A stretch of 54,252 bases of DNA from NCBI GenBank assembly GCA_919902105.1, contig CAKKQO010000004.1, positions 4,180-58,431 of the forward strand. Direction: 5' to 3'. The stretch is from Omnitrophica bacterium GWA2_41_15. GTDB taxonomy: Bacteria > Omnitrophota > Gorgyraeia > Ghiorseimicrobiales > Ghiorseimicrobiaceae. How positions within the stretch are numbered: the stretch's first letter is position 1; each line of letters opens with the position of its first letter. Positions 26,142 through 48,566 of the stretch are shown here, piece by piece. Made by a program: the position numbers and the translations under genes. Under the pieces are notes generated by a model that saw only the letters and a program-made list of their open reading frames with translations, did no database searches and was not told where the DNA came from.

Positions 26142-26176
26142 TTATAATCATTATACTGTCGCCTTTGCCGTATAAA

Positions 26177-26207
26177 CAAAAAAGCCGGACAATTAAGTCC
26201 GGCTTTT
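26177..26207 (-). terminator. bidirectional intrinsic terminator after the Met-rich membrane protein gene
   Basis: AGCCGGAC-aattaa-GTCCGGCT flanked by A-run and T-run. Confidence 0.7.
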
Positions 26208-26232
26208 ATAGTTCAACTATTAGGATAAGCTA

Positions 26233-26457
26233 TTATTTAGCCGCAGGCATTTCTGTGCCGCTAACCGGGCATTCCATTGCACCCTTGCCGCCCATCATCC
26301 CGCTCATTGCGCCCTTGCCGCTTTTCCAGCATAAATGTTTCTTGCTCATATATAAGTGTTTGCAAGCCACTCCGACAAGCAAGACTATCGCAATAATAGT
26401 CAGTAAGATATTGGTGTATTTAAGAGAAGACAAAATTCCCTTTTCTTCATTCGCCAT
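26233..26457 (-). CDS. small membrane protein with Met/Gly-rich C-terminal tail (74 aa)
   Basis: GAGGAGG 5 nt upstream of the ATG at 26457; one TM; tail GKGAMSGMMGGKGAMECPVSGTEMP. Confidence 0.5.
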   Translation of the reverse strand: MANEEKGILSSLKYTNILLTIIAIVLLVGVACKHLYMSKKHLCWKSGKGAMSGMMGGKGAMECPVSGTEMPAAK

Positions 26458-26572
26458 ACCCACCTCCTCAATCCCGCGAGTAGCGGAAAAATTTAAAGCC
26501 GATTTATTTCTTAATGCGTATTGTACCTTAATATTGCTTATCTCGCAAGTAAAATTATGGTATGCTTATAAT

Positions 26573-27471
26573 ATGGACGCCTGCCAAAAAGAATTTAACC
26601 GCCTTAAAAGAATAAAGATATTGGTGGCTAAAAATTTTTCTCATTTCGGGCTGAACAAAAAACAGGAAATCAAGCGCCTCATTTATGAAATCTCCAAACG
26701 CGACAACTTAAACCCGGCTAAGGTTATCCGCGGCGCTCAAACAGGGGAATTTAACAGGATAAAAGAATATCTTATAAGCCGCCGTTTTCCTTATGCATAT
26801 GCTCATCGCGAAATCTCAAAAATTTACCTGCCCAGCATCGAACTTGCGGCTCTCGACGCCTTTAATCCTCCGAAGAACAAGTTTTATCCTAAAAAAATCT
26901 TTATAGAAAGACAAGTTAAAGGCTCTTATTTAGCCAAACGTTTTAAAAACGCTTTCCCAAAGGCAGATTTTTGCCAAATTTCGACGCTAAAAGATTACCT
27001 CAAGCCAGAAAAAAGATACGACACTGTAGATTATAACGCGCGGCGTGACACGGTTTTTAATGTGCGCAAGCAGGATATCGGATAGGGTTTCATTTTGACC
27101 CGGTGTTTTATTTTCCCGCCACTAATACTTCGGCGGGATGGAAGAAAGAATACGCTCAGGTTATCGAGAACCTTTTTGCTCACGTTAAGCCGCGTTCTCT
27201 TGCCTGGATAAGTATCGACACCTTTCGCTTTAAGCCGGAATTAAAAAAGATCATTGAGGCGCGTTTTCCGCAAAATAGAATTTTAGACGAAGAACTGCTT
27301 CTCGGCTACGACAATAAATTAAGATACCCTGATAGCCTAAGATACGATATTTATAAATTCCTTATTGAAACTATGAAAAAACACGCCAAGCAATTACCAA
27401 TTTACCTCTGTATGGAAGAAAAAGCTGTCTGGCAAAGACTTAACCTACGTTTCCCATTCTATATAAGATAG
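26573..27471 (+). pseudogene. spore-photoproduct-lyase-family radical SAM gene with internal deletion of the CX3CX2C core and a frameshift
   Basis: Frame 1 ends ...YNARRDTVFNVRKQDIG* (compare B. subtilis SplB YRNAKSTLVIGVRK). Frame 2 opens at 27061 as CAQAGYRIGFHFDPVFY...GWKKEY...LAWISIDTFRFKPELKKIIEARFP (compare SplB AKAGYPLGF...EGWEEGY). About 170 aa between the two are missing. Confidence 0.65.
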
Positions 27472-29314: not shown

Positions 29315-29563
29315 TTATTTAACAACTTTTAAGTTTTCTAATTCTTGCAGAAATTCTGAAACTTCTTTTTCAATAGTTTCAGCATCAGAGCGATAATTCT
29401 CTTCTAAGTCGTCAATGATTTCTTCTTTGCTCTTGCCTTGTTTAATTAAGTTTAAAATCTCGCCTGCGGTTTCATTAGTTACATAGACCTTTTCTTTTAG
29501 CGTATCAAAAACCACAGAGCCAAACTTCTCATTACGCAACTTTACAAATTCAGCAAATTGCAT
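29315..29563 (-). CDS. PqqD-family peptide chaperone (RiPP recognition element)
   Basis: 82 aa; VTNETAGEILNLIKQGKSKEEIIDDLEENY...EKEVSEFLQEL parallels PqqD LNETAAAILELVDG...DVVEFL. Confidence 0.8.
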   Translation of the reverse strand: MQFAEFVKLRNEKFGSVVFDTLKEKVYVTNETAGEILNLIKQGKSKEEIIDDLEENYRSDAETIEKEVSEFLQELENLKVVK

Positions 29564-29616: not shown

Positions 29617-29778
29617 TTAAGTAAATCTTATGTATGGCTGGGCCATTATCTTTCCGGATACATCCTCCAGGCATGGTTTTTGCCACTTTTTTTTGCTTAA
29701 CTCTGGATGGTGTTTCTCCGAAGCCCGCATATGCCTGCTCGCAAGCGGTTCCTCTTTATTAATTTCTCTTGTCTGCAT
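29617..29778 (-). CDS. PqqA-like precursor peptide candidate (53 aa)
   Basis: GGAGGAG SD before the ATG at 29778; the C-terminal WQKPCLEDVSGKIMAQPYIRFT aligns gaplessly with PqqA WKKPAFIDLRLGLEVTLYISNR. Confidence 0.55.
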   Translation of the reverse strand: MQTREINKEEPLASRHMRASEKHHPELSKKKWQKPCLEDVSGKIMAQPYIRFT

Positions 29779-29842
29779 AACTCCTCCTCTTTTTCTTAAC
29801 ACCGAGTATCTTAACATAAAAATTTTTTTTGTCCATTGTTTT

Positions 29843-30628
29843 TTAGGTTATTTTAAAATATCCGCGCGGAGTAATCATATAGCCGTTTTTTAAGTAGGTT
29901 TTGGAATTACCCACTATCACGGTGGTAGTCATATCAATATTGTCTAACGCCATTGCTTTTTTTAAAGTAGTGATGATAATTTCTTGGCCGGAGCGGAAGG
30001 CATTTTTAACTATGCCGACGGGCGTATTAAGCGGCAGGCGCTTGGCAATAATCCGCCAGGCCATTTTTAGCGGTTCTATCCGCTTTTTACTTTTCGGGTT
30101 ATATAGCACAATTACAAAATCGGATTGGGAGGCCGCCTTCAATCTTTTTATGATATCATTTTTATCTGTCAAGAGGTCGCTGAGCGAGATTACCGCAAAA
30201 TCATTAGCAAGCGGCGCTCCTAAAAGGCTTGCGCAGGCTGTCGCTGATGGCACGCCGGGAATGACTTCTATTCTTAGTGTATCTATGTCTTTTTTATTTA
30301 AAAGCTCTAATACCAAACCAGCCATGCCGTAGATACCGGGGTCACCGCTTGAGATAACAGAAACGTTTTTGCCTTCTTTGCCTTTCTGTATCGCTTCTTG
30401 CGCCCGTTTTATTTCCTCGGTCATGCCTGAAGAAATAACCTCTTTGCCCTTAGTTAAATTTCCCAACAGCGCGATATAGGTCTTATAACCGACAATAACT
30501 TGCGAGCATTTTATTGTCTGCCTTGCTTTTTGCGTTAGGCAGCTTAAGTCGCCCGGCCCGATGCCAACGATGCTTAATTTTCCTTGGCAACTGCCACGGT
30601 AACGCCGTTGATGGCTTGTTTTTGACAT
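29843..30628 (-). CDS. cbiH: cobalt-factor III / precorrin-3B C17-methyltransferase
   Basis: LSIVGIGPGDLSCLT, SSGDPGIYG tetrapyrrole methylase motifs; order within the cbi cluster. Confidence 0.85.
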   Translation of the reverse strand: MSKTSHQRRYRGSCQGKLSIVGIGPGDLSCLTQKARQTIKCSQVIVGYKTYIALLGNLTKGKEVISSGMTEEIKRAQEAIQKGKEGKNVSVISSGDPGIYGMAGLVLELLNKKDIDTLRIEVIPGVPSATACASLLGAPLANDFAVISLSDLLTDKNDIIKRLKAASQSDFVIVLYNPKSKKRIEPLKMAWRIIAKRLPLNTPVGIVKNAFRSGQEIIITTLKKAMALDNIDMTTTVIVGNSKTYLKNGYMITPRGYFKIT

Positions 30629-40963: not shown

Positions 40964-42274
40964 CTATGCTCGATATTCATACCTAAGATTATTCATCAAT
41001 TCCTTGCGCAAAATATATTTTTCCTTGCCTTGGGCTATCAGTTTAAAGGCGTGGCGGATTATCGCCTTATAAAAATTGCAGAATACTGATTTTTGGCGAA
41101 ATTTCCCCAGCGAATATAATTCTGCCGGACAAGGCGAGCCGCAGATATTTCGGAATTCGCAAAGATTACATTCTTCTACATTTTCCACAAACCTGCCGCG
41201 TACTTTTTTAAATGGCGCTGAATCCAACGCCTGCTTTATGCCGCCTTTGAAGATGTTGCCGCCAGAAAAGTCCTTTAACCCGATAAATTCGCCGCAGGGA
41301 ATCATTTCTCCTTTAGCGGTAATGGTAAAAAAACACCTTCCGCCTCCGCAAGGCGAGATATCACACATCAGCCGGCGGGCAAACGGTGAAACAATACCCA
41401 GAAGAATATTAGCAAAGTTGGCGATAATTATCTGCCTGCCTGTCTTCTGTGTAAGCGCAATCGCTGTATCCACTGCTTTTATAAACTCTTTAGTTAGCGC
41501 ATTTTCGTCCGGTTTTAATTTTCGCGAGTATTTCTGCGTAAAACGCATGGGGTTTAACAACAGGCAGGGAACTTTTTTGTTATGCATGAATTTTACGATT
41601 TTAGAAAGATTCGCAACGTTATATTTAGTAAGCGTCGTAATCACGTTTAGTCCGGCATAGCCGTCAAACCATTCCAGCGCCTTTATGACTTTATTGAAAT
41701 TACCGCTCCTTAAACGGTTATTTATTTTCCGGCTATACGAATCAAGCGACAGCCCTACGCCAACTCGGTTTTTAATCAAAAACTCCACGTCTTCTTTTTC
41801 CAGGAGAATGCCGTTTGTCTGCAGACCGAATAAAAATTTATCTTTGAACTTTTCTATTGCGGAAAATACAACGTCTTTCACTAATAAGGGTTCACTGGCA
41901 TGGAAAACGATTACTAATTTTTTACGCCGTAGCCCGATATATTGATAAATTTTATTTAAAATAAGTTCGAGTTCATTTTTTGTCATTGAGCGGCCGTCTC
42001 TACGTATCTTAGGCGGCACATAACAATACGGGCAATTGGCGTTGCATCTATCAGTAGGGTCTATATATACGGCGGACAGCTCTACGCCAAAACGGAAATC
42101 GCGCATTTCTCTATCTAAGCCGGCACCTATCCGGTTATAAGACGATAAAACATTCCTTGGAATTATGGTTGAGCCATTATTGGATTTGGGCAATATTGAC
42201 CAAAAAACATTATCGGCATCAAGGGCAATTTTACGATTATTTGTATTTTCGAATATATTTAAGCCGGTTTGCAT
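40964..42274 (-). CDS. radical SAM / SPASM-domain peptide-maturase-like enzyme
   Basis: CNANCPYC (CX3CX2C); C-terminal CDISPCGGGRC...IPCGEF...CNLCEFRNICGSPCPAE...FCNFY; start set at the ATG at 42274 (GGAG upstream), the ORF track starts at the GTG at 42298. Confidence 0.8.
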   Translation of the reverse strand: MQTGLNIFENTNNRKIALDADNVFWSILPKSNNGSTIIPRNVLSSYNRIGAGLDREMRDFRFGVELSAVYIDPTDRCNANCPYCYVPPKIRRDGRSMTKNELELILNKIYQYIGLRRKKLVIVFHASEPLLVKDVVFSAIEKFKDKFLFGLQTNGILLEKEDVEFLIKNRVGVGLSLDSYSRKINNRLRSGNFNKVIKALEWFDGYAGLNVITTLTKYNVANLSKIVKFMHNKKVPCLLLNPMRFTQKYSRKLKPDENALTKEFIKAVDTAIALTQKTGRQIIIANFANILLGIVSPFARRLMCDISPCGGGRCFFTITAKGEMIPCGEFIGLKDFSGGNIFKGGIKQALDSAPFKKVRGRFVENVEECNLCEFRNICGSPCPAELYSLGKFRQKSVFCNFYKAIIRHAFKLIAQGKEKYILRKELMNNLRYEYRA

Positions 42275-42389: not shown

Positions 42390-42545
42390 TTATACAGGCG
42401 ATTCGTTCTTCGGCGCGTCTCCATACATCACGAAATGCGATAGGCCGTTGCCGGTTTTAGCGCATTTTAAACGGTAAGCAATACTACCGTCATTGCTCTT
42501 TTTGCAGTTACTTTGCTTACGAGCTTTTTTTAATTTAGCCGCCAT
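42390..42545 (-). CDS. 51-aa ORF, candidate precursor peptide for the adjacent SPASM enzyme
   Basis: Not in ORF track. AGGAGGG 4 nt upstream of ATG; MAAKLKKARKQSNCKKSNDGSIAYRLKCAKTGNGLSHFVMYGDAPKNESPV. Confidence 0.5.
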   Translation of the reverse strand: MAAKLKKARKQSNCKKSNDGSIAYRLKCAKTGNGLSHFVMYGDAPKNESPV

Positions 42546-48357: not shown

Positions 48358-48406
48358 TCGCACCCTAATTTAAGCTATCGCCCTTCCGCGCGGAAATAAT
48401 CCCAAA

Positions 48407-48550
48407 TATAGGCAGGTCTTCTGGCTACCGGATCACTCTAATTGCCAAGCCTTCCCGGCCCGAAACTTCTGGTCAGTGGCATCTTTGGCTTTCGTCCCCG
48501 GATACAGCGGCGGGACCGCTCCTGCTTCCACAGGATTCCCTTTACCTATA
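48407..48550 (-). promoter_or_regulatory. cobalamin riboswitch aptamer
   Basis: Minus-sense UAUAGGUAAAGGGAAUCCUGUGGAAGCAGGAGCGGUCCCGCCGCUGUA...GCCACUG...GGGAAGGC...AGCCAGAAGACCUGCCUAUA: conserved GGGAA, GCCACUG and AGCCAG-N-ACCUGCC (B12 box) blocks, P1 UAUAGG/CCUAUA. Confidence 0.85.
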
Positions 48551-48566
48551 ACTAATTGTTCTTATA

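Follow-up and report, generated by a model that had tools for sequence, protein, structure and literature searches.

We analysed a small open reading frame (ORF) in a 54,252-nucleotide window, by which we mean the whole stretch of DNA under study. The ORF lies on the reverse strand, opens with an ATG at 29778-29776, closes with a TAA at 29619-29617 and translates as MQTREINKEEPLASRHMRASEKHHPELSKKKWQKPCLEDVSGKIMAQPYIRFT (53 aa). This product is identical to that given in an initial annotation of the DNA, which had also placed a Shine-Dalgarno sequence 4 nt from the start. This distance holds when it is counted from the AGGAGG core and is 2 nt for the whole AGGAGGAG run. A longer ORF is possible from an ATG at 29817, but the 53-aa start is preferred on the basis of the public gene calls on the same contig and of the nearest homologues, which likewise open with MQT. 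The N-terminal ~28 residues are variable and Lys-rich, while the conserved region spans residues 29-53. In operon order the peptide gene is followed by genes for a PqqD-family chaperone, a radical SAM enzyme and a MenA/UBIAD1-like prenyltransferase, separated by gaps of 2-53 nt (Table 1). Rfam gave no match in the region of the peptide gene.

Table 1 Positions of the peptide gene, its motifs and signals, and the cassette enzymes in the window.
Feature	Position	Strand	Evidence
Precursor peptide gene, 53 aa and stop	29617..29778	(-)	Sequence; called on public contigs; homologues in 299 species genomes
Shine-Dalgarno AGGAGGAG, 5' of ATG 29778	29781..29788	(-)	Read from sequence
Weak sigma-70-like promoter match, TGGACA/16 nt/TAAGAT with TG extension, between cbiH stop and peptide gene	29808..29835	(-)	Motif match
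Invariant C-terminal core M45-T53 (MAQPYIRFT), presumed modification site	29620..29646	(-)	82-locus codon analysis
W32-V40 codons (WQKPCLEDV), PqqA-like putative recognition motif for the PqqD-family chaperone	29659..29685	(-)	82-locus conservation and hhalign
PqqD-family peptide chaperone (RRE-type, 82 aa)	29315..29563	(-)	PF05402, E 1.8e-15
Radical SAM enzyme, 329 aa, CxxxCxxC at C37/C41/C44	28323..29312	(-)	PF04055, E 4.6e-26
MenA/UBIAD1-like integral-membrane prenyltransferase, UbiA superfamily, 285 aa	27459..28316	(-)	PF01040, E 1e-22

The cassette forms the last piece of a long same-strand string of cbi/cob genes that starts after a cobalamin riboswitch at 48394-48564(-), and the peptide gene begins 64 nt past the cbiH stop. 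A further pair of peptide and radical SAM genes, of the CbpA/CbpB type, lies within the same operon, and a cobA-type gene is found ~2 kb from the cassette in locus L003. Taken together, these positions would make the cassette part of cobalamin metabolism. We regard this as very improbable and rejected it, since no cobalamin gene family is found among the recurrent neighbours of 80 other loci. The radical SAM enzyme also lacks a B12-binding domain, and a promoter-like site lies 5' of the peptide gene. This site is a hint only, because eight promoter-like matches were found in the region against 7.4 expected from shuffles, and read-through from the cbi operon into the peptide gene is equally possible.

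Relatives of the peptide were found in 299 of 185,579 species genomes by a peptide-alignment search of genome contigs, whereas the same kind of search with the radical SAM protein alone returned no relative. The family is spread over at least ten phyla, judged by record titles, including Omnitrophota, Planctomycetota, Elusimicrobiota and Proteobacteria, with one cultured carrier, Rhodovibrio sodomensis DSM 9895, and its profile matched 95 clusters (50% identity). MAQPYIRFT followed directly by the stop ends all 82 loci examined, with no amino-acid change and with synonymous sites saturated; every synonymous codon occurs, including the six Arg codons. The peptide gene is thus under extreme selection at the protein level, and the family matches a core housekeeping protein in the strictness of its conservation. 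Upstream of the core, the W, P and V of the W32-V40 segment are invariant and its E and D/E are nearly so. The Shine-Dalgarno sequence, the operon gaps, the homologues and this protein-level conservation together establish the ORF as a real gene for a genuine precursor-type peptide. Its short length and its overlap with plus-strand ORFs (29630-29893 and 29634-29762) are what a chance ORF might show, but the probability of this is negligible. The codon analysis of the 82 loci rejects it, with a protein that is conserved despite synonymous variation, alongside the Shine-Dalgarno sequence and fixed synteny. The peptide family has no Pfam or NCBIfam model and is annotated as "hypothetical protein" if it is called at all, and the literature searched gave no description of the peptide or its cassette.

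Rare variants of the family retain P-[Y/F]-I-R-F-[T/S]. The Met four residues before the Tyr (Tyr-4), which the initial annotation took as the key difference from PqqA, is present in 82/82 loci, but rare variants have Val or Thr there, and in variant P0213 both this Met and the Gln at Tyr-2 are replaced. Thus, the Met is probably not a crosslink partner. In one lineage with a seemingly intact cassette (L096, found in two samples) the Tyr itself is replaced by Phe, so the phenol OH may not be required, which weakens a version of the product based on a Tyr phenol or quinone. The basic leader of ~31 aa noted for this ORF is real here but is a variable appendage, with 4-60 residues of unconserved sequence elsewhere. 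In the W-x-K-P motif that had been pointed out, the W and P hold throughout, while many loci have T, A, S, Q or R in place of the K.

We compared the peptide with PqqA, to which the initial annotation had likened its tail. The Klebsiella PqqA sequence used there is correct (100% match to annotated pqqA). The W-to-Y spacing that it described was confirmed: seven real PqqA sequences have 16 residues between W and Y, end at Y+4 and carry E at Y-4 in 7/7, and the ORF has the same spacing and the same end (W32, Y49, T53). The PqqA profile models suggested there as a check (PF08042 in Pfam, TIGR02107 in NCBIfam) did not recover the resemblance, with no match at E<=10 for the full peptide or four 24-aa cores. 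However, hhalign of the family-core alignment against a real PqqA alignment gave a probability of 69-70% (P 4e-5, score 19.3, 14 columns), and 400 column permutations all fell short of that score (mean 7.3, sd 1.9, max 15.6). It pairs KWQKPCLEDVSGKI with MWKKPAFIDLRLGL, in the register originally proposed, and the W32-V40 segment is aligned with PqqA WKKPAFIDL. Within the conserved region, only the N-terminal (recognition) half is similar. Thus, the W-x-x-P-x-hydrophobic-x-acidic-hydrophobic half, which aligns beyond permutations, is PqqA-like and the core is not.

The core contains no Glu (MAQPY in 82/82 loci), PqqB, PqqC and PqqF/G are found neither within +/-10 kb of the cassette in the window nor among the recurrent neighbours of 80 loci, and cysteines for auxiliary clusters are not conserved in the radical SAM enzyme. 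The cassette is therefore not a PQQ system and the peptide cannot make PQQ, in agreement with the initial annotation. Its reading of the ORF as a PqqA relative holds for the precursor nature and for the PqqA-like segment, but not for kinship as a degenerate PqqA: the peptide is a separate, unnamed family. The most informative features lie outside the region which that annotation covered, namely the prenyltransferase, the polyprenyl-diphosphate synthases, the link to the Na+-NQR and a radical SAM enzyme without auxiliary cysteines.

Comparison of the loci reveals two architectures, peptide-PqqD-radical SAM-UbiA (type 1) and PqqD-radical SAM-UbiA-radical SAM-peptide-radical SAM (type 2). The additional type-2 radical SAM paralogues are absent from the window. 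Rhodovibrio sodomensis DSM 9895 carries the type-2 form, at locus L080. The UbiA homologue co-occurs with the peptide in both architectures, and PqqD, radical SAM and UbiA genes are present in nearly all loci with enough flanking sequence, which shows an obligatory linkage of the peptide gene to the three enzymes. The PqqD-family protein, found in essentially every locus with enough sequence, scores 37.3 bits with the PQQ-specific model TIGR03859, below the cut-off of 46, and nominally passes TIGR04353 (PqqD_rel_X; 38.5 bits against a cut-off of 35). The domain is short and generic, and this pass is probably a cross-hit. Membership of the HPr-rel-A system was rejected, since HprK-like kinases were found neither within +/-10 kb in the window nor among the genes that recur beside the cassette.

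The radical SAM enzyme belongs to the peptide-maturase lineage. Its AF2 model (pLDDT 88.8) has SkfB, PqqE and SuiB as top Foldseek matches, which are its closest solved relatives. The C-terminal domain has a SPASM/twitch fold without conserved cluster cysteines: among 116 family members the only conserved Cys are those of CxxxCxxC, C45 and C280. An auxiliary cluster built from Cys at the alignment columns of window residues 93, 156 and 214 was considered and rejected, since 68-83% of type-1 enzymes have these Cys but neither the window protein nor any type-2a orthologue does. Crosslink-forming radical SAM peptide maturases normally carry auxiliary clusters. A search at E<=1e-20 returned 774 homologues, and all NCBIfam equivalogs score far under their cut-offs on this enzyme. 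Tetrapyrrole chemistry of the AhbD/NirJ type was likewise rejected, with top NCBIfam matches of 105-131 bits against cut-offs of at least 500 and with a PqqD chaperone and a peptide in the cassette.

These enzymes bear on whether the peptide might be a PqqA paralogue whose Tyr is crosslinked to a neighbouring residue by a PqqE-like enzyme, giving a soluble cofactor that is PQQ-like, but not PQQ itself. The PqqA-like leader half, the W-to-Y spacing and Y+4 C-terminus, the PqqD-family partner and the place of PqqE among the closest solved structures would all suit such a product. We nevertheless find it improbable. The peptide is not matched by PqqA HMMs, and the radical SAM enzyme scores 77.4 bits with the PqqE model TIGR02109 against a cut-off of 381 and lacks the SPASM cysteines that PqqE needs. 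PqqB, PqqC and PqqF are missing beside the cassette in the window and among the recurrent neighbours, the positions at Tyr-4 and Tyr-2 are replaced in P0213, and the obligatory prenyltransferase is left out of account.

The prenyltransferase looks competent and MenA-like from its sequence. MenA models are its best NCBIfam matches, although all scores fall below their cut-offs (TIGR00751, 78.6 against 102.15; NF004751, 105 against 264), and its nearest PDB sequence is UBIAD1. The two Asp-rich motifs, which in the UbiA superfamily bind Mg2+ and diphosphate, read NEYFDARLGSD (at residue 58) and DYYQD (at residue 185). Across 64 homologues, N58, E59, D62, D68, D185 and D189 each reach a conservation of at least 95%. 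A polyprenyl synthetase gene (PF00348) adjoins the cassette in 22 loci, in both architectures; the best matches of these synthases are heptaprenyl-, solanesyl- and octaprenyl-diphosphate synthases, all below curated cut-offs. The prenyltransferase therefore resembles that of MenA/UBIAD1 menaquinone prenylation in its best matches and in its two conserved Asp-rich motifs, and the wider setting, with long-chain synthase genes of the HepT/IspB type and a quinone reductase (NQR) nearby, is also shared. It differs in scoring below all curated MenA cut-offs and in lying always inside a cassette of peptide, PqqD and radical SAM genes, a unit that is part of no known quinone pathway. We know of no UbiA-superfamily enzyme that acts on a peptide.

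Of ~45 type-1 loci, 13 (from 12 genomes) have Na+-NQR genes next to the cassette; no type-2 locus does. nqrB-F lie directly upstream of the peptide gene in loci from Planctomycetota and Omnitrophota MAGs. The cassette is placed between nqrE and nqrF in at least two genomes, a Planctomycetaceae MAG (L023) and a Lentisphaeria MAG (L029 and L035), and in a Brocadiaceae contig (L032), which holds no nqrE, nqrF comes directly after UbiA.

The genes that recur around the cassette include no transporter, immunity gene or dedicated protease, and this lack of recurrent export machinery fits an intracellular or membrane product. The cassette does have RiPP-type features, with a small precursor co-located with a PqqD/RRE protein and a modifying enzyme, a conserved core and a variable N-terminus. 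This gene layout, with a radical SAM protein as the modifying enzyme, is typical of RiPP clusters and could also serve a conventional secreted RiPP, a bacteriocin or signal that is possibly lipidated. Such a product is highly improbable given neighbours that are respiratory and isoprenoid genes and that include no recurrent exporter, immunity gene or leader peptidase. The core is also invariant across at least ten phyla, whereas antimicrobial and signalling RiPPs diversify fast.

The constant PqqD, radical SAM and MenA-like partners and the frequent NQR neighbours indicate that the ORF is probably the precursor of an undescribed membrane-bound, peptide-derived cofactor. In its full form, our preferred reading is that the product of the undescribed four-gene cassette is a peptide-derived cofactor, prenylated and bound to the membrane, with a role tied to quinone-dependent respiration, and to this reading we give about an even chance. 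We infer every chemical step of the pathway proposed here. By analogy with PqqA and PqqD, and from the profile alignment, the PqqD-like protein would bind the PqqA-like W-x-x-P-x-hydrophobic-E-[D/E]-V segment and present MAQPYIRFT to the radical SAM enzyme. This enzyme, with no conserved auxiliary Fe-S site, would abstract an H atom in or near P-Y-I-R-F-T and remodel the motif, in chemistry that may be redox-neutral or may use the conserved Cys280 or Cys45. The HepT/IspB-type synthase, whose gene adjoins the cassette in many genomes, would supply a long polyprenyl chain, which the MenA-like enzyme would then attach to the remodelled peptide or to a part of it. The aromatic ring of Tyr49 is the most likely acceptor and the C-terminal carboxylate a less likely one. 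Tyr is the source of isoprenoid-quinone head groups in plastoquinone and tocopherol (through homogentisate), in eukaryotic ubiquinone (through 4-hydroxybenzoate) and in caldariellaquinone. The gene neighbourhood suggests that the product would be a membrane-anchored peptide-derived cofactor or a quinone-like lipid in quinone-dependent electron transport, notably that of the Na+-NQR.

Several observations count against a prenylated cofactor. The NQR link is limited to the 13 type-1 loci. The radical SAM family is without auxiliary clusters, unlike the usual crosslink formers. Phe replaces Tyr in the intact-looking cassette L096, and the cassette of the window, positioned 3' of the cobalamin operon, adjoins neither nqr nor a polyprenyl synthase gene. 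Finally, the invariance of nine residues exceeds what would be expected for the donor of a single side chain, and fits better with a product that retains much of the peptide.

Part of this evidence would also suit a different division of labour, in which the UbiA homologue is the organism's ordinary MenA-type menaquinone enzyme and does not act on the peptide, while peptide, PqqD and radical SAM enzyme together make a compound without a prenyl chain. This could be a soluble cofactor, say, or a small peptide that is epimerised or otherwise altered, and it would aid or regulate quinone biosynthesis or the assembly of respiratory complexes. MenA and UBIAD1, the nearest relatives of the homologue, have small naphthoquinols as their known substrates. 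The lack of auxiliary clusters suits redox-neutral chemistry such as epimerisation, with the one conserved C-terminal Cys as a possible H donor, and the Tyr-to-Phe variant is tolerated. In 12 genomes the cassette sits at the 3' end of the nqr operon, the usual place of accessory genes; apbE, nqrM and similar genes are normally found there. We consider this division of labour unlikely. UbiA is embedded in both architectures, and in type 2 lies between two radical SAM genes, across phyla with enzymes that are 40-60% identical. Linkage this tight and ancient is hard to explain without a shared pathway, and the homologue scores under every curated MenA cut-off, as given above for TIGR00751.

Returning to the prenylated cofactor, comparison with known systems indicates what it would share with them. 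To our knowledge, PQQ and mycofactocin are the only well-established redox cofactors derived from ribosomal peptides, and both are soluble. With the PQQ system the cassette shares a small precursor with W-x-x-P-x-hydrophobic-x-[D/E]-hydrophobic, a Tyr 16 residues past the Trp and an end at Tyr+4. Also common to both are a stand-alone PqqD-family chaperone, radical SAM enzymes of one structural lineage and, presumably, a product that is a cofactor and not an antibiotic. The cassette differs in having no Glu-x-x-x-Tyr, no match to PqqA HMMs, no PqqB, PqqC or PqqF, and a radical SAM enzyme without SPASM cysteines that is far under the PqqE cut-off. The MenA-like prenyltransferase is obligatory here and absent from PQQ systems, and the last nine residues of the peptide never vary, whereas PqqA cores differ from one another at several positions.

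Mycofactocin is likewise a redox cofactor derived from a ribosomally made peptide, one whose C-terminus is conserved and includes a Tyr; MftB is its PqqD-like chaperone and MftC its radical SAM maturase. The MftC model TIGR03962 is one of the two best NCBIfam matches of the radical SAM enzyme, at 124 bits against an unmet cut-off of 265, but MftC has auxiliary clusters. The Tyr is not C-terminal here (the peptide ends in PYIRFT and MftA in Gly-Val-Tyr), and MftD, MftE and MftF are absent from the cassette neighbours in the window and at other loci. A prenyltransferase takes the place of the glycosyltransferase, and the genomic link is to NQR and polyprenyl synthase genes rather than to nicotinoprotein dehydrogenases. 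Mycofactocin, too, was first recognised by comparative genomics alone.

In the cysteine tryptophylquinone system of QHNDH, where QhpD acts on the small subunit QhpC, a radical SAM enzyme modifies a small ribosomal polypeptide, which is then retained and bears the redox-active aromatic group. A modified peptide that was kept as the carrier in this way would explain the many invariant residues. However, QhpD is a SPASM enzyme that forms thioethers, there is no prenylation, and QhpC is a subunit of a soluble periplasmic dehydrogenase; sequence similarity between QHNDH proteins and the cassette was not detected.

We tentatively suggest, as a possible but doubtful extension, that the product represents a new class of respiratory lipid, with a gene-encoded, radical-SAM-tailored, polyprenylated aromatic head group or as a short lipopeptide. 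In Omnitrophota, Planctomycetota, Elusimicrobiota and some Proteobacteria it would serve the Na+-NQR and similar membrane complexes as electron acceptor or bound cofactor. It would then be the first isoprenoid quinone-like carrier with a gene-encoded head group. A prenylated peptide-derived carrier would mean that membrane electron carriers can be built by a new biosynthetic logic and that peptides are among the substrates of the UbiA superfamily, and it could explain gaps in the respiratory chains of poorly understood anaerobic phyla. Even with a different product, a radical SAM maturase family without auxiliary clusters that acts on an invariant nonapeptide is a clear target for enzymology.

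The 53-codon ORF, correctly translated in the initial annotation, encodes the precursor peptide for a maturation system that has no name yet and belongs to the peptide-derived-cofactor type. It is followed on its 3' side by three same-strand genes, with gaps of 53, 2 and 6 nt, encoding a PqqD-family chaperone, a radical SAM enzyme and a MenA/UBIAD1-like UbiA prenyltransferase. This operon ends after the UbiA gene, since the next gene converges from the opposite strand. An upstream ATG at 29817 permits a longer version of the ORF. The 53-aa start is used by public gene calls on contigs identical to that of the window, which stems from Hainich groundwater metagenomes, and the nearest homologues likewise start with MQT. 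Almost all of the best named AccC homologues, which share 70-79% identity, belong to Candidatus Omnitrophota. We count the cassette as the same kind of system as PQQ and mycofactocin, as a variant of it. The peptide is annotated as a hypothetical protein in the source records and has no model in Pfam (newest models 2025) or NCBIfam 20.0 (June 2026), which also hold no equivalog for the radical SAM enzyme or the prenyltransferase. A search of the full-text literature found no description of peptide or cassette.

Features of the peptide cassette and the adjoining cobalamin gene string
Feature	Position	Strand	Evidence
Peptide ORF, ATG to TAA, 53 codons	29617-29778	-	read from sequence
AGGAGGAG 5' of peptide ATG	29788-29781	-	read from sequence
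PqqD-family protein, 82 aa	29315-29563	same as peptide	PF05402, E 1.8e-15
Radical SAM enzyme, 329 aa	28323-29312	same as peptide	PF04055, E 4.6e-26
UbiA-superfamily prenyltransferase, 285 aa	27459-28316	same as peptide	PF01040, E 1e-22
51-aa ORF MAAKLKKARKQSNCKKSNDGSIAYRLKCAKTGNGLSHFVMYGDAPKNESPV, 5' of CbpB-type gene	42390-42545	-	CbpA precursor model, weak: 21 bits vs 35
Radical SAM/SPASM protein, 436 aa, in cobalamin operon	40964-42274	-	TIGR04163 (CbpB), 507 bits vs cut-off 375
Cobalamin riboswitch	48394-48564	-	RF00174, 94 bits

Relatives of the peptide were found in 299 genomes by a peptide-alignment scan of one genome per species, and a word-free profile search gave 95 clusters at 50% identity. 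By record title, the carriers belong to the Planctomycetota, Omnitrophota, Aminicenantia, Elusimicrobiota, Lentisphaerae, Acidobacteriota, Hydrogenedentota, WOR-3, Armatimonadota, Bacillota and Alpha-, Beta- and Gammaproteobacteria, the proteobacteria including cultured Rhodovibrio sodomensis DSM 9895; a few archaeal MAGs hold relatives too. Three of three randomly chosen contexts have the order small ORF, PqqD, radical SAM, UbiA, with small ORFs ending in W[QK]KPxLEDVSG[KR]VMAQPYIRFT. The C-terminal nonapeptide MAQPYIRFT is free of amino-acid changes across 82 loci, and the stop codon directly follows the Thr (82/82), despite the use of all four codons each for Ala, Pro and Thr and six for Arg. 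This motif is therefore under unusually strong protein-level purifying selection. V40 is invariant too, and E38, D/E39 and S41 almost so. Of the WxKP motif proposed initially, W and P are invariant in these loci but K is not conserved, and the N-terminal extension, described as a leader and present in the ORF, elsewhere spans ~4-60 residues with neither sequence nor length conserved. Rare variants change MAQ to VLR, M to T, T to S, W to L or G, and Y to F. Those with VLR and Phe are located in complete cassettes, thus the irreducible motif is P-[Y/F]-I-R-F-[T/S]-stop. The Phe variant (L096 356-478, a locus from Logan SRR24079482; …KIMAQPFIRFT, in place of an otherwise invariant Tyr) occurs with an intact type 1 cassette in two samples.

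We compared the peptide with PqqA, to which its tail had been likened. The Klebsiella PqqA sequence used for that purpose is correct, matching an annotated pqqA at 100%. Each of seven authentic PqqA sequences, from annotated records of plasmids or chromosomes, has 16 residues between W and Y, as in the ORF, and its C-terminus at Y+4, the same geometry as W32, Y49 and T53. The peptide gives no match to PqqA HMMs. When the 25-column core of the family was compared with the seven sequences profile to profile, the proposed gapless register was recovered, KWQKPCLEDVSGKI opposite MWKKPAFIDLRLGL (probability 69-70%, P 4e-5, score 19.3), and 0/400 column-shuffled profiles reached this score (mean 7.3, sd 1.9, max 15.6). 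The resemblance is thus confined to one half of PqqA, which we take to be the PqqD-binding segment. The alignment holds for this recognition-type half but not for the reactive core, where EVTxY of PqqA and MAQPY are not alignable. We read the sequences as a shared PqqD-recognition motif, possibly homologous, fused to a different core.

Homologues of the radical SAM enzyme number 774 at E<=1e-20, and the top 120 share 60-69% identity, the named ones being mainly Planctomycetota. The enzyme scores below all curated NCBIfam cut-offs (AhbD 131 bits vs 500, MftC 124 vs 265, PqqE 77 vs 381); among solved structures, both by sequence and by fold, it comes closest to the peptide maturases SkfB, PqqE and SuiB (AF2 model, pLDDT 88.8). 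Among 116 family members the CxxxCxxC triad is the sole universally conserved Cys set, Cys45 beside it and the C-terminal Cys280 are kept in most subgroups, and no SPASM or twitch cysteine set was found. The absence of this set means that the family almost certainly lacks an auxiliary Fe-S cluster, in contrast to PqqE, MftC, SkfB and SuiB. In NCBIfam the prenyltransferase matches MenA models best, under their cut-offs, and its closest PDB sequence is UBIAD1. Both Asp-rich motifs are kept, and N58, E59, D62, D68, D185 and D189 each show conservation of 95% or more (64 sequences).

Two gene orders occur. The window, Omnitrophota, Planctomycetota and others have type 1 (pep-PqqD-rSAM-UbiA), and Elusimicrobiota and Proteobacteria have type 2 (PqqD-rSAM-UbiA-rSAM-pep-rSAM). 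In a neighbour-joining tree, the type 1 radical SAM enzyme, the single family member in the window, is sister to the type 2 enzyme that comes after PqqD, and the remaining two type 2 paralogues form separate clades. In a betaproteobacterial MAG (L069) the peptide adjoins one radical SAM paralogue only. Planctomycetota MAG JADFJC01 (L036 7222-7299, L012 8001-8132) has a complete cassette and a second, orphan peptide copy that has neither PqqD nor radical SAM nor UbiA genes beside it.

All flanking ORFs of the loci were clustered and the clusters labelled with Pfam. Both architectures include loci, 22 in total, where a polyprenyl synthetase adjoins the cassette; it matches heptaprenyl-, solanesyl- and octaprenyl-diphosphate synthases best, without reaching any of their curated cut-offs. 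Na+-NQR genes directly adjoin 13 type 1 loci from 12 genomes (Planctomycetota, Omnitrophota, Lentisphaeria), most commonly as nqrB-C-D-E-F, then peptide. L023, from a Planctomycetaceae MAG, reads polyprenyl synthase, nqrA-like, B, C, D, E, peptide, PqqD, radical SAM, UbiA, nqrF; the cassette likewise lies between nqrE and nqrF on two contigs of one Lentisphaeria MAG (L029, L035), and in locus L032 UbiA is followed directly by nqrF. No recurrent transporter, immunity gene or peptidase was found among the flanking ORFs. The NqrA-like first subunit of L023 (3564-4952, +), with an RnfC-like N-terminus and a C-terminal 4Fe-4S dicluster domain, is an Rnf/Nqr intermediate form. PilS-like 6-TM histidine kinase genes adjoin ~16 loci (including L006, L007, L009, L012, L013 and L030), a BLAST cluster that may mix unrelated kinases.

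Our evidence is solely genetic, and from it we infer each chemical step. Most likely, the PqqD-like chaperone would bind the PqqA-like motif, the radical SAM enzyme would then remodel the invariant C-terminal motif and the MenA-like enzyme would then attach a polyprenyl chain, giving a membrane-bound carrier or cofactor that serves quinone-dependent respiration, e.g. NQR. The product stands a real chance of being a membrane electron carrier of a new kind. In the main competing reading, the prenyltransferase serves to make an ordinary quinone, and the peptide product only assists that pathway or NQR assembly. The main caveats to a prenylated cofactor are that a Tyr-to-Phe lineage exists, that the window cassette has no nqr or polyprenyl-synthase linkage, that we know of no UbiA enzyme with a peptide as its substrate and that the invariance of nine residues points to a peptide that is largely retained, or is contacted by several partners.

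In the window, two adjacent ORFs (306 and 122 aa, 26165-27471, +) converge on the UbiA gene. Weak similarity to the C-terminal region of spore photoproduct lyase (PF20903, E 1.2e-3) is all that they show, and neither has the CxxxCxxC motif; together they could represent a radical SAM/SPL-like gene that is degraded or has diverged strongly. On the 5' side of the peptide lies a long same-strand string of cobalamin (cbi/cob) genes, ~21 kb from its leading riboswitch down to the cassette, with a weak promoter-like site in the cbiH-peptide interval. The string includes a gene of the CbpB ('cobopeptide' maturase) type and its candidate precursor, and thus, together with the cassette at its end, contains two different radical SAM peptide systems.
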